From the UHGV virus genome UHGV-0277743: a stretch of DNA of 11,098 nucleotides. One strand, given 5' to 3'. The position numbers and the translations under genes are program-made. Origin of the DNA: a virus. The notes below the pieces were generated by a model that did not search any database, was not told the origin of the DNA, and worked only from the letters and a program-made list of their open reading frames with translations. Shown here piece after piece: positions 1 through 11,098 of this stretch (its first letter is position 1; each line of letters starts with the position of its first letter).

Positions 1-135
1 GTTAACGTCACGCACGTGGACGAATGTTTTTGTGGAGTCACTACACGAGCAGAGAAAGCCATCTACGACCAGAAATTCTCTGGCGCAGCCGCCGACCTTC
101 TCAACGCTAACACCATCGACCGTAATTTCTGACAT
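1..135 (-). CDS. hypothetical protein, 5' portion only (ORF runs off the window start)
   Basis: ATG at 133-135 on minus strand, frame open through position 1 ([16 protein letters not shown]...). Absent from the ORF track because it has no in-window stop. No strong SD and no recognisable motif. Confidence 0.3.
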
Positions 136-269
136 AGTTAAGGCATCCGCTCCTACCACCAGAAAATGATAAACTTTGCTTGTATCTGCTCTATTAATGC
201 CAGACTTTGCTGTCATATTGCTGGATTTTGGCGACATACCAGCCAGTGAAAATATCTTCTTCTGGGCGG

Positions 270-452
270 TTAGCATTTGTTAACCTCCGCGAACTCCTTC
301 ATGAAACGTGCCAGCGGTTGTACGCATGGCGATTGATACCCGTCGCGATAAAACGTCACTCGGTTGTGAGACACGCTTTCGACAGTAACGAGTGCTCCGT
401 GGGCATCTTTGTAGCGTTTTTGGGGTTGTGGTGTTCCTGTCGGCTTAAACAT
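270..452 (-). CDS. small hypothetical protein (60 aa)
   Basis: Internal ATG of track ORF 270..539, preceded by GGAGG with a 6-nt spacer. The longer N-terminal extension would overlap the upstream antirepressor gene by about 95 nt, so I use the ATG at 452. Product MFKPTGTPQPQKRYKDAHG...; no motif recognised. Confidence 0.45.
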   Translation of the reverse strand: MFKPTGTPQPQKRYKDAHGALVTVESVSHNRVTFYRDGYQSPCVQPLARFMKEFAEVNKC

Positions 453-1278
453 GGACCGCCTCCAGACGCTTGGCGAGCCAGCGTTGCGACAGGCGGGTGA
501 GTTCTCCTTTGCGCTGCTCATATTCCATGCCCATATCAATTAACGTGATATTGGTGCTTTCGAGATATGAGAGGTGCTCAAGCTGTTCTGCGTTCATATG
601 GTCGCGAGGTTCGCCAGAATAGCCATTTATCCGCGCCCACTGCTTAGCAGTTAGCCCACCAAGAACGATACGAGAAATCATATTGCTCTCGTTTGTGTAG
701 TGGTGTTGCTGCGTCGTTTTCCCCTGCTCGGCACGGGCCATATTCAGCGCATCGCACATTGGCTTAAAGTTGTTTGCGGCACTAATACGGGCTTTTAGCT
801 GGCGACGATAGCGGGCGGCGATTTCAGGCACGCTACGCTGTAATTCTTCCTCGCACTGGATGAAATAACGACGGATAGCGCGACCCTGATCATTGCGTTC
901 GATCATTGCCAGTTCTTTCGCCATTCCGACACTTAACAGATAGTCTTTGCCGGGTCTGCCAGAGTGCTTAATCTTGCTGTAAGCCGCGCCATTCGGGCTT
1001 TTCCCCAAATTTGGGGAAATTGTTTTATGGACTGAGTAATCGTGCCCAATGGTGAAGTCATATTCAGAGATGCGATCAGTGATCCATGTAGAGAAGTCTT
1101 TTCCCACGCCCAACGCTTTGTGTAACGCTTTTGCGCTAACAATATTGGTTTCACGCCCACCGATATGACCAGGAATAACCGGGACAATTGCGGCAAATTC
1201 ATTACCGTTAATTGTGCCCAGAGAGGCGTTCAGATGAGGGGCGGCCTCAGAAATTAATCTGCTTTTTTCGATGTTCAT
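445..1278 (-). CDS. phage antirepressor-family protein (AntA/KilA-C-like N-terminal half)
   Basis: 277-aa ORF. The N-terminal half carries the pattern I associate with phage antirepressor domains (..NIVSAKALHKALGVGKDFSTWITDRISEYDF..GHDY.. and ..DYLLSVGMAKELAMIERNDQGRAIRRYFIQCEEEL). Same strand and downstream of alpA. Family assignment is from memory of the motif, not from a search. Confidence 0.65.
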   Translation of the reverse strand: MNIEKSRLISEAAPHLNASLGTINGNEFAAIVPVIPGHIGGRETNIVSAKALHKALGVGKDFSTWITDRISEYDFTIGHDYSVHKTISPNLGKSPNGAAYSKIKHSGRPGKDYLLSVGMAKELAMIERNDQGRAIRRYFIQCEEELQRSVPEIAARYRRQLKARISAANNFKPMCDALNMARAEQGKTTQQHHYTNESNMISRIVLGGLTAKQWARINGYSGEPRDHMNAEQLEHLSYLESTNITLIDMGMEYEQRKGELTRLSQRWLAKRLEAVHV

Positions 1279-1290
1279 TTTCAGTCTCCG

Positions 1291-1722
1291 TTAGGCGGCG
1301 TTAAACGCGTCCGGGTAGAGTTTCAGAATGTCGGCAATTTCCTGCTGAGAAAGTCCGTTGTGATCATTTATGTTCGCAAGATGGTTAATATGAGTGATCA
1401 CTTTCAGAACATCACCACGGCAGGAGAAACGGTAGCGAAGGTGTGTTCCGATACCATCAGGATTCTTTTCGTCGATACGCTCCAGAGTGATTCCAAGCTG
1501 GCGTTCTAACTCTGTTGCATAGTTACGACCAGAAGACAGATGGCAGTAGCGAAGAATGTCATTTTCTGTCCATCCCTCTATACCAGTACGCAGCATATAG
1601 ACTCTGGCACGATGCTTTTTCGGTGTGCGCTTTGGTGCTTGAAGGGATTTTGTAAGGGGCGTAACATCAGATACGCGAATATCTGAATTAGCCGCCTGTA
1701 ATGGGCGGTTTTTCTTTTCCAT
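1291..1722 (-). CDS. hypothetical protein (143 aa), basic N-terminus
   Basis: Start ATG 1720-1722 overlaps the alpA stop (TGATG arrangement), suggesting translational coupling. Lys/Arg-rich N-terminal stretch (PKRTPKKHRAR). No domain recognised. Confidence 0.6.
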   Translation of the reverse strand: MEKKNRPLQAANSDIRVSDVTPLTKSLQAPKRTPKKHRARVYMLRTGIEGWTENDILRYCHLSSGRNYATELERQLGITLERIDEKNPDGIGTHLRYRFSCRGDVLKVITHINHLANINDHNGLSQQEIADILKLYPDAFNAA

Positions 1723-1925
1723 CAGGCCACCTTCCCGCGGCGTTCTGCCAGCCAGTTGTGAATCTCAACCGCATCAAACGCAGTTATTTTTTCTCCCAGC
1801 TTTACCGGACGTGGTAGTGAACCGTTTCTTACTTTACGGTCGATGGTGGATACACTAACGCCCAGCAATTCAGCTAGGCGGAAGCGTCTGATATAGCCTT
1901 TTGTAGGAATAGTGTCGGTGTTCAT
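1722..1925 (-). CDS. alpA: AlpA-family prophage regulatory protein / excisionase-like HTH
   Basis: 67-aa product with the AlpA/Vis-type signature: FRLAELLGVSVSTIDRKVRNGSLPRPVKLGEKITAFDAVEIHNWLAERRG (HTH followed by a conserved W). Size and position next to an integrase are typical. Confidence 0.8.
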   Translation of the reverse strand: MNTDTIPTKGYIRRFRLAELLGVSVSTIDRKVRNGSLPRPVKLGEKITAFDAVEIHNWLAERRGKVA

Positions 1926-1994
1926 GCTTCCCGTAACCTCTTAGCGATAGTTGTTGCTTCGTTACGGGAGGAAGTATCTGTACATATATGAACA

Positions 1995-2023
1995 ATAAAA
2001 AGGCACAGTAATGATACTGTGCC
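1995..2023 (-). terminator. intrinsic terminator downstream of the AT-rich orphan gene
   Basis: Minus-strand RNA reads GGCACAGUA-ucau-UACUGUGCC followed by UUUUUAUU: a 9-bp stem, 4-nt loop and U-tract, 17 nt after the stop at 2040. Confidence 0.65.
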
Positions 2024-2039
2024 TGAATAGTTAGCTACT

Positions 2040-3005
2040 CTACCCCTTACCGTTGGCGGCAGCACGTAAGTGTCTCAAAATCACATCTTCATTTGTGATT
2101 GCTAACGGTGGAATTTCGTCTTTATGAGCCACTATGCAATCCCGCCACTTCTCAGGGCTTATTTCTTTCTTTTTGCCACGGCATTCATCAGGATACTTTG
2201 ACAAAAGATATATTGCTGATTTGAAAAGTTTTTCCCTGTTTTCAGCATGTCTCTCGGCATTATGGTTGCTATTTTTTATTTCAGGTATTAGTTCCTGTTC
2301 TACCGCCATTTCGTATCGTTTTTTGCTCTTAGCTGCGTCAAAACTTCCATTAACCTTTGCGTCGTGAAGGTATTCTAAATCAGCCTTTGTTATATAAATG
2401 TTTTTATCTGACAGGCTACTCAGGTGAATCTGGGAACTTTGCATTTTGAATTTATATAGATCACAATCAAATGTTGCTTCAAGTCGCACATATGGCTCTC
2501 CACATTCTTGTGAATGATAATGTCGTGTTGTACTACCGCGTACACGCAACAATCCACATGCAATTGATTTTCTTACAATAAAAGAGTTTTTGCCAATTTG
2601 TTCAAAAACATTTTTATTGTCTCTGTCTTCAACTGTCAGTGGTTTATGTGCATAAAATAGCTCATAAGCACCGCTTTCAGATGCTGGGATATAAACTTCG
2701 TTGCTTGCGCTGGTAATAAGAAAAGGAAATGTAAACCTTACTTCTTCTGGGTACATAAGTAATAAATCAGTTATAAAATCAGCATCTTTTTTGAAGTGGA
2801 TGGTGGCATCAGCTTCAATGAAATCAAGAAAGTCAGCATAGACATAAAAGTCTATATGTAGTCTATCTTTCCAATGCCATATATCATCAATTTCACAATT
2901 TAATAATTTTGATGCTCGCTCTATCGTGCAGTAGTCCAAAGGTGGGATACCTGATTCCTGCCATAAATTTCTATGCACCGCAGTTGTTTCATGAGAGTCG
3001 TTCAT
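2040..3005 (-). CDS. hypothetical protein (321 aa), AT-rich orphan gene in the integrase-alpA slot
   Basis: Complete ORF with AAGGTG 5 nt before the ATG at 3005 and its own terminator downstream. Hand counts on sample stretches give 32-37% GC, against about 57% in a sample of the integrase gene. No P-loop or other catalytic motif recognised. Confidence 0.7.
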   Translation of the reverse strand: MNDSHETTAVHRNLWQESGIPPLDYCTIERASKLLNCEIDDIWHWKDRLHIDFYVYADFLDFIEADATIHFKKDADFITDLLLMYPEEVRFTFPFLITSASNEVYIPASESGAYELFYAHKPLTVEDRDNKNVFEQIGKNSFIVRKSIACGLLRVRGSTTRHYHSQECGEPYVRLEATFDCDLYKFKMQSSQIHLSSLSDKNIYITKADLEYLHDAKVNGSFDAAKSKKRYEMAVEQELIPEIKNSNHNAERHAENREKLFKSAIYLLSKYPDECRGKKKEISPEKWRDCIVAHKDEIPPLAITNEDVILRHLRAAANGKG

Positions 3006-3100
3006 TGCGTCACCTTTTACGCTGCGCCTTATTTTGTGATTGAGCCAGGCGGTAAGGCTTCCCGCTTTTCGCCCCGTCGAGCTAGGCTCAATCTATTCAG

Positions 3101-4360
3101 TTAGTTCGCCCTTCTGAGAGGCGTTACGTTGTAGTCTTTTCCGCTTTCCAGTGCCACCAGCAGATCAGCCCACAGTGCCAGTGCTGCTTTACGCTCATCA
3201 AAATACTGATGGCGGTTATAAATCCCCTCTACGCCCTTAATGCGATGATTGAGGCATCGTTCCGCCACGACAGGATCAACACCCAACGCTGCTAAATGAG
3301 TACGTGCGGTGCGTCGGAAGTCGTGAATCGTGAAATTAGGCACATCCGGCATTTCGGCGCGAACCTTAGCCAGTGCTACGGGTAAAGTGCTTTCCTGAAT
3401 ATGTGGGATCATTCTGTTTTGCATTTTCCTGGCTGGAAGCACCCATGCGCTATTACATGAAAAGGTGTGTAGCTCTCTCAACCATTCAACGGCTGGGGAA
3501 GGTAGAGGTATATCAATAGGGTCTCCGTTTTTGCTGCGTTCTTCCGGCAAATGCCATACCGCACCATCTAAATCAAACTCTTCCCATCGTGCGGCGCATA
3601 ACTCCATCTTACGAACGCATAGTGCCAGCAATAGCTTAAATGTCAGTTCGTTCTGGCGGCTGAATCCTTTTGCGGTGCGCATAGCCTCGAATAGCCTGAT
3701 AAGCTCATCGCGAGTTAGCCAACGGTCGCGGGAAACCTCTTTACCACCAGCATCAGATACTTCAAACGCTGAACAAGGGTTTATCTCCAGAGCGTGGCGT
3801 TTTATCCCGTAGTCAAAGATACGGCGTGTCCAGCGTAATACATCTGTTGCTATCGTTGGTGCTCCTCGGTCAACGATACCTTTCAACATGTCGTCAATGT
3901 GGCGTGGCTTAACGTCCTCTACCTTCATATGCCCAATGCAGGGGTTAATATCCTTATCAATTCTCCGGCGAAGGATATCGGGATGTTTCCATCTCGGAAG
4001 TATCTGGCGCTCGAAGTATTCGGAGGCCAGATCTGAAACACGCATGGCGTTTTTCTCAGCCTCCATTTTTGCCAGTGCTTCAGCTTTTCGTTCCTGTTTC
4101 TCTGCTGCTACGTCATAGCCAAGAGCAACTCTGGCTGACAGCTCTTTGGCTGTCTCTCTGGCCTTTGATAGTGATAGCTCGCTATACGAACCAATTAGCA
4201 TGGCGCGGGACTTCCCTGCGAGTTTATAGCGGAATCTCCATGTGGGGGTTTTGTCGGCTTCACGGTAACGTAGGTATAAACCGTTACCGTCTGCCCGCCC
4301 CTCGAATCGCTCTCCGCTCTTAATCCATGCGCGGATCTGCATGTCTGTTAGTTTTGGCAT
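3101..4360 (-). CDS. int: tyrosine integrase, P4 family
   Basis: N-terminus MPKLTDMQIRAWIKSGERFEGRADGNGLYLRY matches the arm-binding domain pattern of P4-type integrases. C-terminus carries HDFRRT and CLNHRIKGVEGIYNRHQY (the H-x-x-R and catalytic Tyr region). Start trimmed from the track value 4501 to the ATG at 4358-4360, because the conserved N-terminus begins there and the extension would run through a terminator hairpin. Confidence 0.9.
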   Translation of the reverse strand: MPKLTDMQIRAWIKSGERFEGRADGNGLYLRYREADKTPTWRFRYKLAGKSRAMLIGSYSELSLSKARETAKELSARVALGYDVAAEKQERKAEALAKMEAEKNAMRVSDLASEYFERQILPRWKHPDILRRRIDKDINPCIGHMKVEDVKPRHIDDMLKGIVDRGAPTIATDVLRWTRRIFDYGIKRHALEINPCSAFEVSDAGGKEVSRDRWLTRDELIRLFEAMRTAKGFSRQNELTFKLLLALCVRKMELCAARWEEFDLDGAVWHLPEERSKNGDPIDIPLPSPAVEWLRELHTFSCNSAWVLPARKMQNRMIPHIQESTLPVALAKVRAEMPDVPNFTIHDFRRTARTHLAALGVDPVVAERCLNHRIKGVEGIYNRHQYFDERKAALALWADLLVALESGKDYNVTPLRRAN

Positions 4361-4390
4361 TTTGCGAATATCCAAACTTTGAATAGGGGG

Positions 4391-4442
4391 TGTACCCAAA
4401 GCAATGTACCCAAACCTCATTGGGTACACCTTTGTGTACACC
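4391..4442. promoter_or_regulatory. GTAC-core operator-like repeats in the int promoter region
   Basis: Two TGTACCCAAA copies (4391-4400, 4405-4414) followed by TGGGTACACC-TTT-GTGTACACC (4421-4442). The near-palindrome GGTGTACACC gives dyad symmetry. Sits 30-80 bp upstream of the int start codon. Confidence 0.45.
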
Positions 4443-4482
4443 ATAATCATGCGCTTTGTTGCGTCGTTATGATAGCTCATGA

Positions 4483-4513
4483 TAACAAAAAAGCCCGACA
4501 TTTCGCGGGCTTT
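4483..4513 (-). terminator. intrinsic terminator between the two-gene cassette and int
   Basis: Minus-strand RNA reads AAAGCCCG-cgaaaugu-CGGGCUUU followed by UUUGUUAUC. The same hairpin on the plus strand is followed by TATGGTTTTTT, so it may act in both directions, less well on the plus strand. Confidence 0.55.
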
Positions 4514-4632
4514 ATGGTTTTTTGCTGCTTGGTGATTTTTGCTGATAGCTTATTCGATATTCTGAATCTGTTTATTGAGTATGAGCCTCTATGCTGCGTG
4601 GTTACTGGATTCCTTGTAATGCTTCTTATAAT

Positions 4633-4655
4633 TAGGTACACCCATGTGTACACGG
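4633..4655. promoter_or_regulatory. second copy of the palindromic GGTACACC-n3-GTGTACAC module
   Basis: TAGGTACACC-CAT-GTGTACACGG aligns with 4421-4442 (TGGGTACACC-TTT-GTGTACACC). The GTAC cores are 12 bp apart in both copies. The two copies flank the terminator hairpin. Confidence 0.45.
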
Positions 4656-4791
4656 TATTTTGAGGTGCTGTCTTTGGCTGCTCATTTTATGCTCTCGTGC
4701 TTGCTGTTCTGGGCTACGTGCCAAACCGCAGCGAATACCTCCGTCTGCCAGATGAGCAAAACATACCTTATAAAGAAAATCGCTGTTTTTG

Positions 4792-4894
4792 CTGTACCAC
4801 CTGTACCACCATGTCACAAACCCTTGTGTGACGCGGCCTGCAGGTGGTACAGGTGGGTAAAAATGACCTCTCCCCACCTGTACAGACCTGTACC
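4792..4894. repeat. iteron cluster B with nested inverted repeats (candidate ori or attP core region)
   Basis: The 9-mer GGTACAGGT or its complement occurs at 4799-4807 (-), 4847-4855 (+) and 4886-4894 (-), with related copies at 4792-4798 and 4876-4884. A perfect 14-bp inverted repeat CCACCTGTACCACC (4797-4810) / GGTGGTACAGGTGG (4843-4856) encloses an inner 6-bp inverted repeat GTCACA (4813-4818) / TGTGAC (4827-4832) with an 8-bp spacer. Confidence 0.5.
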
Positions 4895-4900
4895 ATTTAT

Positions 4901-5638
4901 TTAATTTTTACCCATAGCAGCACATAATCCCTTTTTTGAAATATTGAAAAATGCGTTCATTCTTCCCGCTGGCTTAACCTTGTAGCCGCTTGCCACCATC
5001 GCCGCAATAAATGCTCCGTTGGGGATATAGTGCGGGTGATCACTGTGCTGGTGGTTTATCTGGTTATATCGCTCCACTTCATGCTTCAACGTGTCAGATG
5101 TGGGGTTATCCTGCGGGAAGCTCTCAATCTGGGCATTACTCATCCCGTTGTCTCTGATCCATCTCAGGCAGCTTTTCGCCGATACGATAAATGACGGGTT
5201 ATCAAGCGGGTTTTCCCAGTCCGCATTCCGGTTGTGGAGCGCCAGTCCGTCAAGGTTAAATTGTGGGTATTCAGCGGTAATTACTGTCACTGCGTGGCGG
5301 ATTTCAGTCTCGTCACAACATGGCTCATCTCCCACACCAGCAGGGTAATAATCTGAACCACCGGGACTGATACAGCGTTTACCACTGAAAGGCCATTGCT
5401 TCGCCATTTCGGGTGTTGAGTGATTACCGTCGCTCCGTTCGCGCTGTGCCTCTGTCCACTGGCTGGCATATTCAGTAAATGAAACCCTTTGCCCCTGACG
5501 CATCCAGTGCGCAATCATAATTAAAGTGCGTTCCAGACTTTGGATGTCGCCAGCATTCCCGCACTGTGTAGCGAAACTTTTTAATTCTTCGCGCTCCGTT
5601 CTGGTCATTCCCTGCGGTATGCAATAGTTATTGCTCAT
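4901..5638 (-). CDS. hypothetical protein (245 aa), second gene of a two-gene cassette
   Basis: ATG at 5636-5638 preceded by AGAGAGGT with a 5-nt spacer. Overlaps the upstream 76-aa gene by 11 nt. His-rich C-terminal patch (INHQHSDHPHYIPNG). No family recognised. Confidence 0.65.
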   Translation of the reverse strand: MSNNYCIPQGMTRTEREELKSFATQCGNAGDIQSLERTLIMIAHWMRQGQRVSFTEYASQWTEAQRERSDGNHSTPEMAKQWPFSGKRCISPGGSDYYPAGVGDEPCCDETEIRHAVTVITAEYPQFNLDGLALHNRNADWENPLDNPSFIVSAKSCLRWIRDNGMSNAQIESFPQDNPTSDTLKHEVERYNQINHQHSDHPHYIPNGAFIAAMVASGYKVKPAGRMNAFFNISKKGLCAAMGKN

Positions 5639-5858
5639 GTTTTACCTCTCTGATTTCTGCTGCCATATCTGTTGGCTCTATACAGCCGTCCCGACTTGCC
5701 ACGCAGGGAATAATGATTTCAACGGTATCGCCGTCAATACACATTTCAACATTCGCCCATGCCGCAATGGGTAGCCAGTCTGAACGCCCCTCAAACCGTA
5801 GCTGCCAGCCAGAGGAAGAAGCTAACTGGCGCACTTTGTAAAATGGTGTGCTCATCAT
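5628..5858 (-). CDS. hypothetical protein (76 aa), first gene of the two-gene cassette
   Basis: Tandem ATG ATG at 5858-5853 with GAGAGGG 8 nt upstream. Stop overlaps the start of the 245-aa gene. No HTH or other motif recognised. Confidence 0.55.
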   Translation of the reverse strand: MMSTPFYKVRQLASSSGWQLRFEGRSDWLPIAAWANVEMCIDGDTVEIIIPCVASRDGCIEPTDMAAEIREVKHEQ

Positions 5859-5902
5859 TGGTTGTTCCCTCTCAGCCAGCCAGAAGAAATGCGTTTGTTA
5901 AT

Positions 5903-6005
5903 GGTATAGGTGGTACAGGTCTGGTATAGGTAAGACATTGACCTGTACCACTATAACACATTGTTTTTAATGCTGAATTAGCAAAGTGGTATAGGTGGTA
6001 CAGGT
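5903..6005. repeat. iteron cluster A immediately downstream of the primase-helicase gene (crr/ori-like)
   Basis: Identical 18-mer GGTATAGGTGGTACAGGT at 5903-5920 and 5988-6005; partial copy GGTATAGGT at 5923-5931; inverted copy ACCTGTACCACTATA at 5941-5955. The basic unit is the 9-mer GGTAYAGGT. Flanked by AT-rich sequence (6006-6034). Confidence 0.6.
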
Positions 6006-6034
6006 AAAAACGATCTTCTTGTAAAAAGACTATA

Positions 6035-8386
6035 TTAAAAAACATCATAACCCCCCATACCGATCAGACGGGCAAACGCAGCCTGTAGAACTCCGACCTC
6101 TGGTAGTTCGTAGAACACGCCATTCCCTCGGTCTGGTCTTCCATGCTTCACCAGCCCCATTTGTGCAAGTGATTTACCCAGTAGTGATCTGGCAGCTGGT
6201 TCTTTAAGCTTTTCCCCACGCTCAAGCGACCACGCTACAAACCGACTAACCATATCCTTTGCAAACAAACGGACTTCGCCATTAAACGGAGGTTCATTGA
6301 TTAGCTCGCCATAAAGAAACAATTCAACGCCAGACAGCCCCAGCAAGATTTCTTCACGTAAGGCATCGGTCTGTGGCGCTCGTTGAGGGTCAAAACCTGA
6401 GAGATCCACCCCTTTAAGATGCCAAAGCAACTTTGCGGCACCGCCATCATTAAGCCAACTGTACAGCCGATCAAAATACTCCCGGCTCTGTGCTTTTTCA
6501 GGAGATGGCTCAAGCACGAGATAGCGACGCTCTCTTATCCCTGCCTGTAATACCTGTGTGCTGTTACTGGCAAATATCAACCGGGCAAAATTCGGCATTG
6601 GTTCAGCATCAATTCCCTTGCGCTCAAGGTTAAACGTCGGTTCGCTAATAATCGCTTTAAGTCTGTCAGCTTCAGACGGCTTGTGGATCGTCACTTCGTC
6701 AGCAAATACCAGTAGCTTGTTAGCAAGTATTGAATTGAAGCGCCCTGAAATATGTCCCGCCCCGTTAATGTGGGCGGCGTACTGCCCCAGTATTTGCAGC
6801 AGCGGTTTAACCGTTGTGCCTTTCCCTGTGCCCGGGACAGATTTCATCACGATTGCCACGGACGGTTTTTCATCAGGCTTTTGGATAATGTGCGCCATCC
6901 ACTGGATAAGATATTGGTATGCCTCTTCATTACCGGCACAGACAACCTGCAACAGGTGATTAAGGTATACCGTGCAATCTCCTTCAATTGGTTCCAGTGC
7001 CAGCCCCTCATACAGATTAAAAACATCGTCAGGGCATTTGTCTGGTACTGGATAAAATCCTACGCCTCCTGGCTTGTAGTTCTTCCCACTCCATGACAGC
7101 CACGCCGATCCCGCCAGCTTTCTGGCGACTCTCGGTTTATGATGAAAATAATGCTGAAATTGTGATAAATCCTCGAAAACGTGCGATACACCGCCGGTTT
7201 GAGAAGGCTTTAGCGACACCACCTTGTGTTTCCCGCCGATGGTGACATGCGTAAACGTCCGGTTGATTTCTTCGAGGACAGCAATTTCATCATCGCTTAA
7301 CACCTCGCCAGAACTGATCTCATTCAGCGCCCCGACTGACTGTTTGTGATTTTTCACCTGCGCCCCTTTCCCCCGTGGCTGGTACATCGAATCTTTAAAT
7401 GCTGCTGTGGCTGCCGCCAGCCCGTGTTGTTGGTGATAGTCGTTCCAGTCGGCTTTATAGTCAGTCGGTGGCAGAGACACCCAGCCAGCTACGGAAATAG
7501 CGGCCCTCTCTGCGGCATCTTTCCCCGTGTTGATCCCTCCACTTTCGGAGTTTCCTTGCTGGTGATCGTTATCTGCGGCAATGATGATTTGTGCCTGTGG
7601 ATATGTTCTGCGCATGACTTCCGCTACTGGCAACAGGTTGCCAGCGTCGATTGCTGCCACTGTCATTGCGTCAGGGCGAATTAAATGGCACGACAGGGCG
7701 GTAGCCACCCCCTCAGCAATTATGATGCTGTGAGGTCGTTTCTGTGCGTTTATGGCGTGATATGCCCCTCGCTTTGCTGAACCTGTCAGGAGTCTTTTTT
7801 CACCATGTGAGGTAATAGTCTGTGCTGCTGTGACTGCGCCGGATTTATCCACCAGCGCCAGCAACAGAGATCCATCGGGCAACACAGGGAATGTAAAATC
7901 ACCTACCCCTTTCGCAACCAGATAATCAGATTTGCCGTTTACAGCCTTTCTGCGCATGTCATCAAACTGACGGGAAAACGTATCCCGTCTTTGTTGTTCG
8001 TCCTTCTCTGCCCTTTTCAGGCGCTCCTGTTCGCGTCGCTGGCGCTCGGTTTCCAGTTGTTCCCGTTTCTGGCTGGTGGCTTCTGGTGTTTCCGTTGTCC
8101 GGTAATCAATACCCAGAACATCAGCGGCAAGCAGCGCCGCCTCTGTTGTGTCGCAGTTATTTACGCGTTTAATTAAATCCAGCCCATCACCAGCGCCGCA
8201 CTGATTACAGATGAAGCTACCGCGCCCGTTGTCATCGAACCGGAATCGATCTTTGCCCCCACATGCAGGGCAGGGAGCATGACGGCGCGGAGAGTCAGGG
8301 ACATTTATGTTCAGGCAGCCCAGCACATGAGGCCAGTTGTTTTCAGACGCACTGATAACCTGACGGATAAGATCAATGTTTCGCAT
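6035..8386 (-). CDS. bifunctional DNA primase-helicase, P4 alpha-like
   Basis: 783 aa from the ATG at 8384-8386 (the track starts one codon earlier at a GTG). N-terminal zinc ribbon CPACGGKD..CNQCGAGDG; Toprim motifs IIIAEGVATALS and IIIAADND; Walker A VPGTGKGT and Walker B LLVFADEV. GGGG SD 7 nt upstream. Resemblance to P4 alpha in length and domain order is from memory. Confidence 0.9.
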   Translation of the reverse strand: MRNIDLIRQVISASENNWPHVLGCLNINVPDSPRRHAPCPACGGKDRFRFDDNGRGSFICNQCGAGDGLDLIKRVNNCDTTEAALLAADVLGIDYRTTETPEATSQKREQLETERQRREQERLKRAEKDEQQRRDTFSRQFDDMRRKAVNGKSDYLVAKGVGDFTFPVLPDGSLLLALVDKSGAVTAAQTITSHGEKRLLTGSAKRGAYHAINAQKRPHSIIIAEGVATALSCHLIRPDAMTVAAIDAGNLLPVAEVMRRTYPQAQIIIAADNDHQQGNSESGGINTGKDAAERAAISVAGWVSLPPTDYKADWNDYHQQHGLAAATAAFKDSMYQPRGKGAQVKNHKQSVGALNEISSGEVLSDDEIAVLEEINRTFTHVTIGGKHKVVSLKPSQTGGVSHVFEDLSQFQHYFHHKPRVARKLAGSAWLSWSGKNYKPGGVGFYPVPDKCPDDVFNLYEGLALEPIEGDCTVYLNHLLQVVCAGNEEAYQYLIQWMAHIIQKPDEKPSVAIVMKSVPGTGKGTTVKPLLQILGQYAAHINGAGHISGRFNSILANKLLVFADEVTIHKPSEADRLKAIISEPTFNLERKGIDAEPMPNFARLIFASNSTQVLQAGIRERRYLVLEPSPEKAQSREYFDRLYSWLNDGGAAKLLWHLKGVDLSGFDPQRAPQTDALREEILLGLSGVELFLYGELINEPPFNGEVRLFAKDMVSRFVAWSLERGEKLKEPAARSLLGKSLAQMGLVKHGRPDRGNGVFYELPEVGVLQAAFARLIGMGGYDVF

Positions 8387-8744
8387 CACCGTACCCCACG
8401 TGGTCTATAGCGTTTGCGATATGGCTAACCAGCATCTGCCACTTGGTTATTCCGTAATCAGTCAGCATGCCATCATTGTTTAGCCACATATCAAATTCAG
8501 CGGTTGTCGCAAGTTTCCACTTATCGCCGTGGACAGTCCTCATTGCTGGGTACATGAATGCGCAAATCAGATCACAAACATCTGACGGCTTCAGAGATGT
8601 AGTAATGGTGCGTCCCTCTGGCGTCTGAATTGCCATTTTCTCTTCACCAGTAGAATGAAGGTTATGAATCCACACAGCACCAGCAATCTTTGCCACCTGC
8701 TCTCCGATTGCGGAGCTAAGCGCCATTTCTGCATTTTCACGCAT
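8373..8744 (-). CDS. hypothetical protein (123 aa), early operon
   Basis: ATG at 8742-8744 overlaps the upstream stop; its own stop overlaps the alpha start by 14 nt. No motif recognised. Confidence 0.6.
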   Translation of the reverse strand: MRENAEMALSSAIGEQVAKIAGAVWIHNLHSTGEEKMAIQTPEGRTITTSLKPSDVCDLICAFMYPAMRTVHGDKWKLATTAEFDMWLNNDGMLTDYGITKWQMLVSHIANAIDHVGYGDAKH

Positions 8745-9078
8745 GAGAACCTCCCGCTACAGTTGCGCCCATGTCATTAACCATGCTTTGCCATATCTCA
8801 CGCCCGACGTCAGTCAATCCGTCCTTAGTGACGCAACGCTCAAGAAGCTCGATCCCCACGGTTTCCCACTGCGGGTAGAACACTTTCATGGCTGCCAGTG
8901 TGTAGCTATCGATCAGGCTGCGAACGCCTTTTACTCCATTGACGATTTCCACACGTACGGCCTCGCCGTCCGCATCAACCATGAAATAGTCCCCGCCGCT
9001 GGTGGAGGTAATGTGGTTATACAGTGCCGACGCATACTTATTTGCCAGCGCATTCAGTCGGAAATTTTTAGTAATCAT
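8737..9078 (-). CDS. hypothetical protein (113 aa), early operon
   Basis: ATG at 9076-9078 preceded by AGGATGGAG, 10 nt after the upstream stop. No motif recognised. Confidence 0.6.
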   Translation of the reverse strand: MITKNFRLNALANKYASALYNHITSTSGGDYFMVDADGEAVRVEIVNGVKGVRSLIDSYTLAAMKVFYPQWETVGIELLERCVTKDGLTDVGREIWQSMVNDMGATVAGGSHA

Positions 9079-9088
9079 GGCTCCATCC

Positions 9089-9691
9089 TCAGTGCGTCAC
9101 TGGTTCCGCTGGCATGCCGTTTTCATTCAGTTCAGCTATAAAGCTGTTGTGAAGTTCAGCAAGCGTTTCACGCCCAAATGGAGTCAGTGCTCCTTGTTCC
9201 ACATCCATCATGGCTCTGTAGAAAATAATGGCGCGTTCTGTGCCAGACTCGATGCCAAAACGTTCTATCATCGCGCCCTCAATGTTGTTTGCCATAGCGA
9301 GGCGCTCTGCTACTGGATACAGCGGCATGGCGACGATGCCGTTGGAATAAACAGCCACTTCGGAAGGATTGCCAGTATCATCAATGATGCTGACAGTGCC
9401 GTTTTCCTCTCTCATTTCCAGCATGAATACTGTTGCGATCAGCCATCTCCACATAATGACGTTATGCTGTGATGTGTAATCGAAATATCCCTGGTTGCCG
9501 CCATCGGCAATAGCGAGATGTATTGACATACCTTCATCTGGTTTATCGTCATAATCCCCGGCATCCAGACGATTTACGGCATCAATATATGAGACGGCCT
9601 CAACGCGTTCTGTCATGCCATCGTTGCTGCGGTACATGATGTTTACGCCGTCAGGCGTTGCTTCTGCATGGAAAGTTAAGAAGTTATTCAT
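9089..9691 (-). CDS. hypothetical protein (about 200 aa), early operon
   Basis: Track ORF 9089..9796 trimmed to the in-frame ATG at 9689-9691 (MNNFLTFHAEATPDG...), 2 nt after the stop of the preceding 73-aa gene. The discarded N-terminal extension is Cys/Trp/His-rich and overlaps that gene. The start is uncertain; 9724 is an alternative. Confidence 0.5.
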   Translation of the reverse strand: MNNFLTFHAEATPDGVNIMYRSNDGMTERVEAVSYIDAVNRLDAGDYDDKPDEGMSIHLAIADGGNQGYFDYTSQHNVIMWRWLIATVFMLEMREENGTVSIIDDTGNPSEVAVYSNGIVAMPLYPVAERLAMANNIEGAMIERFGIESGTERAIIFYRAMMDVEQGALTPFGRETLAELHNSFIAELNENGMPAEPVTH

Positions 9692-9905
9692 GTTTCGCCT
9701 CGCCTGAATGATTCTGTAACTCATATTTGCCCAACAATTCGTCCGCTTCCTGAATAGCTTCTGGTACGCCATTGAGCAGTGACATAACCGCGCCAATCAT
9801 TAACTTGTCTCTGTTGCTGGGGCTGGCCCCTTCAAGCCAGAACCCTAAAACAGTCTGAACCTGTTCGATGCGACATTGCGCTTCAATGAGCTGGATGTTG
9901 GTCAT
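9684..9905 (-). CDS. hypothetical protein (73 aa), early operon
   Basis: ATG at 9903-9905 overlaps the upstream stop (ATGA), with GGAGAG upstream. Confidence 0.5.
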   Translation of the reverse strand: MTNIQLIEAQCRIEQVQTVLGFWLEGASPSNRDKLMIGAVMSLLNGVPEAIQEADELLGKYELQNHSGEAKHE

Positions 9906-10165
9906 TTCGCACTCTCCACATCGATTAAACCGATATCTATCAGGGAGGTAACTTTTTGTAGCCAGCTATTGATTACTGTCGCCTGTTCCCCGCCCACCGA
10001 GGGAACAATCTCATTCATCACATGAACCAGACCTGTGCGCGCTCTGGTAAGCCGTTCAGTCGCGCAATCTGCGGGAGTGAATGTGTCTGGATATGGCTCT
10101 TCACGCCCCAGCAATGATTCAATTTCCAGCTCACACGGATGACGATAAATTAAGTTGATATTCAT
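9902..10165 (-). CDS. hypothetical protein (87 aa), early operon
   Basis: ATG at 10163-10165 preceded by GGGGGTG with a 4-6 nt spacer; ATGA overlap with the upstream stop. Confidence 0.55.
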   Translation of the reverse strand: MNINLIYRHPCELEIESLLGREEPYPDTFTPADCATERLTRARTGLVHVMNEIVPSVGGEQATVINSWLQKVTSLIDIGLIDVESAK

Positions 10166-10356
10166 TTTTCACCCCCAAGAATTACCAGCTCGGCACGGGC
10201 ATCGTTAACCAAAGATGAGCACGCTTTAATCGCATCCACGACATCAGCAGCGTCCATTTCTTCAGCCGAAAGACTGACAGCAACCAGGACAGCCGCTGCT
10301 TGCTCGATTAATTGAAGTGCGGACGTAAGGCGAGGGGTATTAATTGAGTTATTCAT
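10162..10356 (-). CDS. hypothetical protein (64 aa), early operon
   Basis: Track ORF 10162..10413 trimmed to the ATG at 10354-10356 (MNNSINTPRL...), preceded by GGGGG. Acidic, Ala-rich product. Confidence 0.5.
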   Translation of the reverse strand: MNNSINTPRLTSALQLIEQAAAVLVAVSLSAEEMDAADVVDAIKACSSLVNDARAELVILGGEK

Positions 10357-10567
10357 TGGTTGCCCCCGTTTTGCATGGCATTTGTCCACCTTCCAGCAGG
10401 AAATGAACGTCACGAACGGCGAGATCCAATATCGCGAGTAACGCCTTCAGCCTTTCGTCTCGTGAGGGAGAGTTGCTCACCAGAATGTCGTTAATCACTT
10501 CTGTCAGTGTGATGATCTGGCTTGTGCGTTCGAGGGGATCCATATGCACATCGTAGGTTTTAATCAT
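10349..10567 (-). CDS. hypothetical protein (72 aa), early operon
   Basis: ATG at 10565-10567 preceded by GGAGGTGGCAC, a strong SD. This is the 3' part of track ORF 10349..11095, whose upstream portion I do not accept as coding. Confidence 0.55.
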   Translation of the reverse strand: MIKTYDVHMDPLERTSQIITLTEVINDILVSNSPSRDERLKALLAILDLAVRDVHFLLEGGQMPCKTGATNE

Positions 10568-10754
10568 GTGCCACCTCCATGCGGATACGACCAGCAAAAA
10601 AGCAGACGTGATCGCGCACCAGAGAACGGCGAGCATCGCGTTCAGACTCGGCAGCAATATGATGAATTTTGGCGGTAATTGTCGGGCAATCGCGGCGAAC
10701 TGCGGCGATAATCCAGATAAATTGCGGTTTTTGGGTAGGGGTAGTAGCCAGCAT
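10560..10754 (-). CDS. hypothetical protein (64 aa), first gene of the early operon
   Basis: ATG at 10752-10754 preceded by GAGG with a 7-nt spacer. Its stop overlaps the next start (ATGATTAA). Competes with the long alternative-frame ORF 10349..11095, so confidence is modest. Confidence 0.45.
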   Translation of the reverse strand: MLATTPTQKPQFIWIIAAVRRDCPTITAKIHHIAAESERDARRSLVRDHVCFFAGRIRMEVAHD

Positions 10755-10913
10755 GTGGCAGCCTCTGATTCATGGTTTTGAGAACCACCACCGGAAACGC
10801 CAATTTCGCTGGTGGTGAACTGTACAGGGTTGGCGTAACCGGGAATCAGAGAAACCGGCGCGGATTGCTCCGCCCCCATACAGTCCACCATTGAACAGGT
10901 GTAACTGCGCGGC

Positions 10914-10939
10914 ACAAAAAAACACGCATGGCGCGTGTT
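10914..10939 (-). terminator. intrinsic terminator in the leader upstream of the early operon (candidate attenuator)
   Basis: Minus-strand RNA reads AACACGC-gccau-GCGUGUU followed by UUUUUGU, and the stem can extend with GCACAA/UUGUGC. Lies about 160 nt upstream of the first early gene. Confidence 0.45.
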
Positions 10940-11000
10940 GTGCGCTCTGATAATTACCGGGACGCCAATCCCGACACCAGATTTTGCTGGTGCGCTATAA

Positions 11001-11043
11001 CCATAAACCGTGTTGCCGCATAACGGCAAGCTCTTTTTTATGG
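11001..11043. other. stem-loop element in the leader (CCATAAA...TTTATGG with an inner GC hairpin)
   Basis: Outer inverted repeat CCATAAA (11001-11007) / TTTATGG (11037-11043) encloses the hairpin TTGCCG-cataa-CGGCAA. On the plus strand the hairpin is followed by a T-run, so it could also be a plus-strand terminator. Function unknown; the window ends 55 nt further on. Confidence 0.3.
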
Positions 11044-11098
11044 ACTCCGAAAACTCACTATTGGAAGCACCAGATGCACAATACATCGCGCTCATTTC

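Follow-up and report, generated by a model that had tools for sequence, protein, structure and literature searches.

A single-gene exchange slot behind a structured RNA leader, between the integrase and alpA genes of an Enterobacterales phage satellite

We describe the interval between the integrase gene (int) and alpA in the virus genome UHGV-0277743, together with the open reading frame (ORF) that fills it, here called ORF X or, for gene and product alike, X. The stretch of DNA analysed, 11,098 nucleotides (nt) in length and referred to as the window, is an AlpA-type phage satellite of 11.1 kb, similar to phage-inducible chromosomal islands (PICIs) and to P4, that integrates at the 3' end of yicC. 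ORF X lies at 2040-3005 and encodes 321 amino acids (aa), as a preliminary description of the sequence had reported; it is on the minus strand. X is an accessory, horizontally exchanged gene in a purpose-built slot of the satellite. We discuss the anatomy of this slot, the RNA leader that precedes its gene, the protein family to which X belongs, and the roles that X may play; among these, we tentatively prefer recognition of phages by a protein that acts through binding.

The int-alpA exchange slot

The slot has a set order: the stop codon of int; the int-alpA RNA leader with a fixed Shine-Dalgarno (SD) sequence and ATG; an AT-rich ORF of about 1 kb; a hairpin; an inverted repeat; and alpA (Table 1). 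Compared by blastn with a locus that carries another E. coli allele (L012), the window shows 99% DNA identity up to position 1968 and again from position 3001, and a different gene stands in place of the segment between them, 1969-3000. Genes are genuinely exchanged at the int-alpA position. A leader fixed, with its SD and ATG, ahead of the exchangeable gene would explain why the recombination boundary at the start codon is sharp.

E. coli alone has at least 5 occupants: X (77 genomes), an allele of 316 aa whose tail is the same (41), a 281-aa remote homologue (37), a 307-aa remote homologue (33), and an unrelated DUF6387 protein. The first 4 are discrete alleles across the 5,426 complete E. 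coli genomes searched, and 3 of the 4 are mostly at least 99% identical internally. To survey the slot without bias toward X, we anchored on the 143-aa backbone gene in IMG/VR, which gave 48 loci having both int and the anchor. About 40 of these contain a single co-directional slot ORF of roughly 190-356 aa; a few have 2 or 3 shorter ORFs. The occupants form at least 20 sequence clusters and have a GC content of 33-45% (int, 45-56%). Among the roughly 40, about 12 belong to the X superfamily, at least 10 are DUF6387 proteins, and the remainder are unannotated; DUF6387 is the sole Pfam family seen among slot occupants. None of the more than 90 slot proteins scanned with PADLOC matched a known defence system.

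The slot can also be empty. No slot ORF was called in 8 of the 48 loci, where the interval from int to the 143-aa gene measures 659-900 nt and its longest ORF is the 67-aa AlpA. Likewise, EcCICFT073, an experimentally functional PICI (PMC6092414), has no gene between int and alpA. Given these empty versions, the slot gene is dispensable.

Variation in X is uncoupled from Int and AlpA types. The X tail is 61-86% identical across the loci compared and occurs with Int proteins of 26-96% identity and AlpA proteins of 34-100% identity; conversely, an identical AlpA (100%) and a 95-96% identical Int are found with a different slot protein. The idea that the tail is more conserved than its neighbours was ruled out, its conservation being comparable to that of Int. 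The position of the superfamily is constant: directly after the integrase and directly before alpA in every member neighbourhood examined, a sample that takes in close alleles, remote members, 7 species-representative genomes, at least 3 insertion sites, and one integrase that is only 26% identical. In relatives the slot gene begins 13-18 nt past int.

Parts of slot proteins recur in new combinations. Common C-terminal modules stand behind unrelated N-termini in the IMG/VR loci L057, L058, and L071, and in L064, L077, and L085; examples are '...DDPL.IAI.LRN.EW...EKVACPI.R' and 'W.DF.GKDTALM.IAGMA.AL..S....R.G...NK.A'. Because such modules return behind different N-termini, the slot proteins are modular, with domain shuffling among families.

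A variable slot between conserved flanks is a known kind of satellite locus; what differs here is a single gene behind a fixed structured RNA leader, drawn mostly from unannotated modular families, beside the master switch. The preliminary description had taken the int-proximal slot for a known variable-cargo position of P4-like elements. Comparison across related elements bears out the first half of this claim: cargo alternates at the int-X-alpA position, the segment 1969-3000 is swapped, and empty slots occur. The link to P4 does not hold: the hotspot of P4 is flanked by psu and int, beside cos (PMC9122126), and its different position rules out identity with the slot. The two are nevertheless alike as small loci (1-5 kb in P4) between conserved satellite genes, in the turnover of AT-rich cargo against near-identical flanks and, presumably for X as well, in expression when integrated (PMC9122126). 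They differ in content: the P4 hotspot holds many unrelated multi-gene systems in either orientation, including restriction-modification, retrons, and PARIS, whereas the int-alpA slot holds one co-directional gene behind a fixed RNA leader, with no known system seen.

The leader is Rfam motif RF02996, 'int-alpA'. In the window it spans 67 nt and scores 60.6 bits (gathering score 35.8) in a full-length covariance-model match to model positions 1-71. The motif was found in 19 other loci, just upstream of the slot ORF in 18 of them and ending 14-21 nt before the ATG in 16. In all 19 it falls between the stop codon of int and the slot ORF, regardless of protein family (X-type, DUF6387, or others) or of integrase type. 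There was no match in 2 slot-bearing loci (L061 and L075), in the 2 empty-slot loci scanned, or in EcCICFT073. An alignment of 14 leaders reveals both-sided compensatory changes at 5 of the 9 pairs of the outer stem, and places SD and ATG in identical columns before unrelated ORFs. Fixed in this manner, the SD belongs to the backbone. An SD of its own had been attributed to ORF X; the AAGGTG is there, but as part of a leader common to unrelated slot genes. In cassette exchange, the leader further serves as the upstream arm of homology. Rfam types the motif as a small RNA gene named after its neighbours; here it sits directly before the slot ORF and includes the conserved SD. Since the motif precedes the slot ORF in 18 of 19 loci and is missing from every empty-slot locus scanned, we suggest that the int-alpA RNA is a cis-acting leader of the polymorphic slot gene and not a free-standing small RNA.

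At the other end, the slot is bounded by the inverted repeat TCCCGTAAC-N23-GTTACGGGA, with which the downstream homology arm begins and which is kept in 7 of the 8 loci aligned (from E. coli, Salmonella, and Klebsiella) independently of the slot allele. The repeat may be an operator, for AlpA or a helper factor, or else an RNA stem over the ribosome-binding site of alpA.

Table 1. Features of the int-alpA region of the window and domains of X (coordinates in the window)
Feature	Position	Strand	Description
Tyrosine integrase (int)	3101..4360	-	419 aa (RefSeq annotation); X follows 95 nt downstream, on the same strand
int-alpA RNA motif, Rfam RF02996	3026..3092	-	Structured leader immediately upstream of the slot gene
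Shine-Dalgarno AAGGTG	3011..3016	-	5 nt before the ATG of ORF X; part of the conserved leader, not of the cassette; aligned in all 14 leaders
Exchangeable cassette	1969..3000	-	ORF X from just past its ATG, the hairpin, and about 30 nt
ORF X	2040..3005	-	RefSeq WP_001000003/4, 'hypothetical protein'; current occupant of the int-alpA slot
N-terminal head	2790..2948	-	Residues ~20-72; predicted beta-alpha-alpha-beta-beta, Xis/MerR/AlpA-like winged-helix fold
Middle region	2331..2789	-	Residues ~73-225; beta-rich, fast-evolving; not BLAST-alignable between alleles (alignments A1, A2)
Helical tail	2043..2264	-	Residues 248-321; conserved, mildly basic; long helix and small three-helix bundle
Intrinsic-terminator-like hairpin and T-run	1991..2024	-	10-bp stem, 4-nt loop; separates X from alpA
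Inverted repeat	1929..1969	-	Perfect 9 bp; ends 3 nt before the alpA ATG; downstream slot boundary
alpA	1722..1925	-	Pfam PF05930; master activator/excisionase-type regulator of Gram-negative PICI-type satellites (PMC6092414)

ORF X and its protein family

ORF X is a real gene. It is kept at a DNA identity of at least 98.9% in 77 of the 5,426 complete E. coli genomes, full length and always chromosomal, and Salmonella, Enterobacter, and Cedecea have homologues that are also full length, at 58-72% identity. GC makes up 37.5% of ORF X (GC3, the value at third codon positions, 30.1%), against 49.3% in the remainder of the window and 46.5-52% in the other 13 window genes tested; the lowest-GC 966-nt segment of the window begins at 1947 and overlaps ORF X. 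The AT-richness noted earlier is thus real. The integrase gene, for which about 57% GC had been estimated, has 50.2%. X is compositionally distinct, as had been noted, but low GC is no mark of recent foreign arrival: in each of the other loci measured, too, the slot occupant is richer in AT than int and alpA.

The signals around X are divided between cassette and backbone. A simple consensus scan of the 95-nt spacer between int and X (3006-3100) found no sigma-70-like promoter; a weak or non-sigma-70 promoter would escape such a scan. The picture of X as an autonomous moron is not upheld, with no promoter of its own found and a common RNA leader in front of it, downstream of int. The terminator that had been assigned to X is confirmed. 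Its hairpin, AGGCACAGTA-tcat-TACTGTGCC at 2024..2001, is followed by TTTTATTGTT, and pairing is kept via compensatory changes in the X-family alleles L003, L006, L008, and L010. The hairpin was not detected behind the alleles of L012, L013, and L014.

The product of X is uncharacterised, as had been suspected: no significant match was found in Pfam, PADLOC, PHROGs, NCBIfam, or the PDB. The best Pfam candidate, DUF6137, falls short of the cut-off (E = 0.021). The best candidate in PADLOC (PADLOC-DB 2.0.0), PDC-S31 (E = 0.002, 15.5 bits), is common to none of 20 homologues. Sequence searches of the PDB with the single X sequence and with a 79-sequence profile gave no usable match, and tblastn of X against 50,697 phage records returned no homologue.

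Within Enterobacterales, by contrast with these databases, X has many relatives. A word-indexed search recovered 48, all from this order; in most, similarity is confined to a poorly conserved N-terminus and to 75 C-terminal residues that hardly vary, and the middle cannot be aligned. An exhaustive profile search extended the superfamily to 599 cluster representatives (at 50% identity) at E <= 1e-3, 158 of them at E <= 1e-10; nearly all are 270-350 aa in length. The named members come from Klebsiella, Salmonella, and Xenorhabdus, and every one is annotated 'hypothetical'. Neither Pfam nor PADLOC matched any of 78 sampled members, and the 10 other slot occupants searched against PADLOC gave no meaningful match.

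Two proposed relatives were rejected. YfjH, a 318-aa protein encoded between intA and alpA of prophage CP4-57, is not a homologue (BLASTP E = 0.43; hhalign probability 0.5%), and its gene is on the opposite strand. The DUF6387 occupant is not a distant relative (hhalign probability 0.2%). DUF6387 proteins resemble X in using the same slot and the same RNA leader (L013, L051, and L082), in their similar size, and in being likewise uncharacterised; they differ in that homology to X is undetectable.

An AlphaFold2 model of full-length X, with a predicted local distance difference test (pLDDT) score of 68, suggests 3 parts: a head (residues 25-71), a beta-rich middle, and a long helix with a helical bundle (residues 244-317). 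The tail has the consensus AERHAxNREKLFKSAIYLLSKYPDECRG..KEISPEKWRDCI..H..EIPPL.ITNEDVILRHLR. For the middle, tblastn found no match outside L001 and L002, and there is no significant fold match. Foldseek of the full model against the PDB gave nothing below E = 0.2. Neither an enzyme fold nor an effector fold (nuclease, TIR, SIR2, protease, kinase, or membrane effector) was found in the model.

The head is predicted to share the beta-alpha-alpha-beta-beta fold of the MerR/Xis/AlpA winged-helix proteins. It has no hidden Markov model match to the HTH_17, MerR, or Phage_AlpA profiles, and its comparison with AlpA shows weak in-register similarity (hhalign probability 12%). Unlike in these proteins, the recognition helix and wing of X are acidic or hydrophobic instead of basic, and the remaining 250 residues have no counterpart. 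The head carries a net charge of -6 (isoelectric point, pI, 4.6), compared with +6 (pI 10.6) for AlpA; with so acidic a head, the winged helix of X is a poor candidate for DNA binding. A non-DNA-binding member of this group exists in CbpM. Acidity is common across the X family: the pI of the whole protein ranges from 4.7 to 6.1, and in most other alleles the middle has a net charge of -14 to -27, with -5 for the middle of X itself.

The host satellite

On E. coli chromosomes, window positions 4701-11098 followed by 1-4570 align as one contiguous run, which makes the window a circularly permuted form of an element next to yicC. The chromosomal gene order is a 245-aa gene, a 76-aa gene, a DUF5906 primase, small genes, ash, DUF4222, antA, the 143-aa gene, alpA, X, int, and yicC. 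Pfam identifies alpA and a P4-type primase among its genes. The element is similar to EcCIMP1, which is a PICI that the P22-like phage Kapi1 mobilises (PMC11773190).

The region 4380-4900 looks like attP, the phage-type attachment site, and the window, with its junction at 11098/1, is probably the complete excised or circular form of the satellite. Three observations lead to this assignment: positions ~4551-4570 repeat the 3' end of yicC (...QIQNIE*), the stretch 4550-4760 is also present in another strain, at the island's far left end, and the hexamer TGTACC/GGTACA is clustered, with 8 copies within 4391-4894 and 15 window-wide (3.4 expected). These copies are probably integrase arm sites. 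No tRNA attachment site is present, the element using the 3' end of yicC instead. Separately, 3 more copies of the hexamer occur at 5912-6002, just upstream of the primase gene (6035-8389), and may be iterons, an origin, or extra sites for Int or a regulator.

The minus strand at 10808-11006 is a P4/P1-type RNA immunity region: it holds a C4 antisense RNA (76.7 bits), isrK (81.1 bits), and an a1/b1 target motif, upstream of the ash/icd-like gene. A 248-aa ORF listed at 10349-11095 is probably spurious, as it overlaps these C4, isrK, and a1/b1 RNAs. Two further genes deserve mention. In the AntA/AntB-type antirepressor (445-1278, minus strand), the C-terminal 100 residues match the PADLOC candidate family PDC-S22 (E = 1e-10). 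The distal 245-aa ORF (4901-5638, minus strand) has no match in Pfam, NCBIfam, or PADLOC, and a weak one to a PHROG of unknown function (E = 7e-4).

Other strains carry a longer version of the island, apparently by about 8 kb (L011, E. coli A3, 13001-21000; L002, 6684-14000). The extra genes encode a PerC-family regulator, an Abi-family protein, P22-like DNA-ejection proteins, and DUF2824, and lie between the left attachment arm and the 245-aa gene. Window positions 4701-4760 are present at both ends of this extra segment; the 11-kb form could therefore arise by deletion between the repeats.

Candidate roles of the slot gene

From what is demonstrated here, namely the anatomy of the slot, its exchange and dispensability, and the family membership and fold of X, we propose that X is a phage-recognition protein that acts by binding, with an anti-phage outcome; we put the probability of this reading at roughly 40%. 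With no promoter of its own found, X is most likely read from the int transcript via the RNA leader, and would be produced in the quiescent phase of the satellite. The hairpin downstream of X would stop this transcription before it reaches alpA. An infecting phage would be recognised, through one of its components, by the variable middle; the target of the conserved tail would be one that Enterobacterales have in common. As a net effect, particular phages might be excluded or interfered with, to the benefit of both satellite and host.

Three features favour an accessory role directed at phages: the gene is exchanged between backbones that are otherwise identical, it is dispensable, and it diversifies rapidly without tracking Int or AlpA. 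A defence function is possible by analogy with 2 sets of elements: variable loci between conserved genes in P2 and P4 carry anti-phage genes (PMC9122126), and EcCIMP1 contributes to superinfection immunity via an unmapped gene (PMC11773190). Several findings weigh against this proposal, and the defence cargo envisaged in the preliminary description, a single-gene anti-phage or abortive-infection system, is unsupported. No PADLOC model matches X, the 78 family members, or the 10 other occupants; X lacks the effector folds listed above; and the phage records hold no homologue. Characterised defence hotspots hold known systems at appreciable frequency, and the int-alpA slot, unlike them, showed none. 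Moreover, one superfamily together with DUF6387 fills a large share of the slot, and the members examined are all bound to the int-alpA position; for the superfamily, so fixed a position suggests a functional link with int and alpA and not free cargo. Finally, the gene in the equivalent slot of the Vibrio satellites termed PICMIs (phage-inducible chromosomal minimalist islands) is needed for excision (PMC10803314).

Coupling to the master switch is the starting point for a second explanation, which we regard as doubtful but weigh seriously: X could be a helper-phage sensor and gatekeeper of the satellite, a functional analogue of Stl from Staphylococcus aureus pathogenicity islands (SaPIs). 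Stl is a DNA-binding helix-turn-helix repressor of the quiescent state, encoded divergently from the operon it controls, and its variable part recognises a specific helper-phage protein. X would be made constitutively with Int and would silence the satellite, either through its head, as a decoy or partner of AlpA or Int, or through its tail, on the alpA leader. The block would be lifted once a protein of the helper phage bound the variable middle, with alleles tuned to different helpers. X shares with Stl a conserved part joined to a variable part that may serve recognition, and may share production in the quiescent state. Its place directly upstream of alpA in every neighbourhood examined, the conserved inverted repeat at the start of alpA, the predicted Xis/MerR/AlpA fold of the head with its weak in-register similarity to AlpA, and the absence of the family from the phage records are all consistent with such a sensor. 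Furthermore, both the switching of alpA by helpers and the existence of a repressor in Gram-negative PICIs have been stated to be open (PMC6092414; PMC10803314). On the other side, some functional satellites have no slot gene, and EcCIMP1 has just a small ORF there; unrelated occupants, among them DUF6387, in which no domain common to X is detectable, are found on backbones whose AlpA is identical and whose Int is nearly so. X is co-directional with int and alpA whereas stl is divergent, and the acidic head, which makes DNA binding unlikely, argues against a classical repressor.

A more elaborate form of the sensor, in which leader and polymorphic ORF together constitute a specificity module, strikes us as unlikely. 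Here X, produced with Int during quiescence, would keep the AlpA/Int switch off by means of its excisionase-like decoy head or its conserved tail, and a protein of the right helper docking at the fast-evolving middle would free it.

The Vibrio satellites inspire a further alternative, that X is a cofactor of excision or integration, equivalent to iolg/icg, within an Int-AlpA recombination complex. PICMIs show the same int-gene-alpA order on one strand, and their iolg/icg genes, like the slot genes here, belong to many unrelated families of unknown function and are occasionally missing (from 3 of 35 PICMI subfamilies); deletion of iolg abolishes excision of PICMI115 (PMC10803314). The short distance from int to the slot gene in relatives and the excisionase-like fold predicted for the head fit this comparison. 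However, the comparison is one of position, and iolg overlaps int by 1-13 nt in satellites of Vibrionaceae (PMC10803314), whereas X, in hosts of the Enterobacterales, is separated from int by 95 nt that hold an RNA motif. Alleles of X show no coupling to integrase type, attachment site, or AlpA type; the head is acidic; and in EcCICFT073, whose slot is empty, expression of alpA alone triggers excision (PMC6092414). We therefore judge a cofactor role improbable.

Equally improbable in our view is that X is an anti-defence protein, such as an anti-restriction protein or a decoy, co-expressed with int on entry to shield the incoming element. Int must act on arrival, and its probable co-expression with X would suit this purpose. 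The strongly acidic family recalls DNA-mimic anti-restriction proteins, and rapid diversification and AT-richness, both seen here, are typical of anti-defence loci. Yet the middle of X is only mildly acidic, X is not seen to resemble Ocr, ArdA, Acr, or any other known family, and the case is built from composition and position. Other explanations take up the remaining probability.

If these findings hold, a superfamily of about 600 clusters (at 50% identity), unannotated and tied to a single position, int-X-alpA, in satellites of E. coli, Salmonella, Klebsiella, and other Enterobacterales, is a well-defined experimental target. The slot itself, about 1 kb between 2 conserved arms, is a natural place to mine further candidates. 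The orphan int-alpA motif gains a context, a fixed leader with SD and ATG ahead of an exchangeable gene, which suggests cis-regulation. Should X act in defence, it would represent a new, effector-less anti-phage family carried by satellites. Should it act as a sensor, it would supply the missing link from helper-phage infection to alpA activation in Gram-negative PICIs; and if leader and ORF form a specificity module, this would explain how Gram-negative PICIs and P4-like islands recognise their helpers, with the RNA motif as a gate on expression of the sensor.

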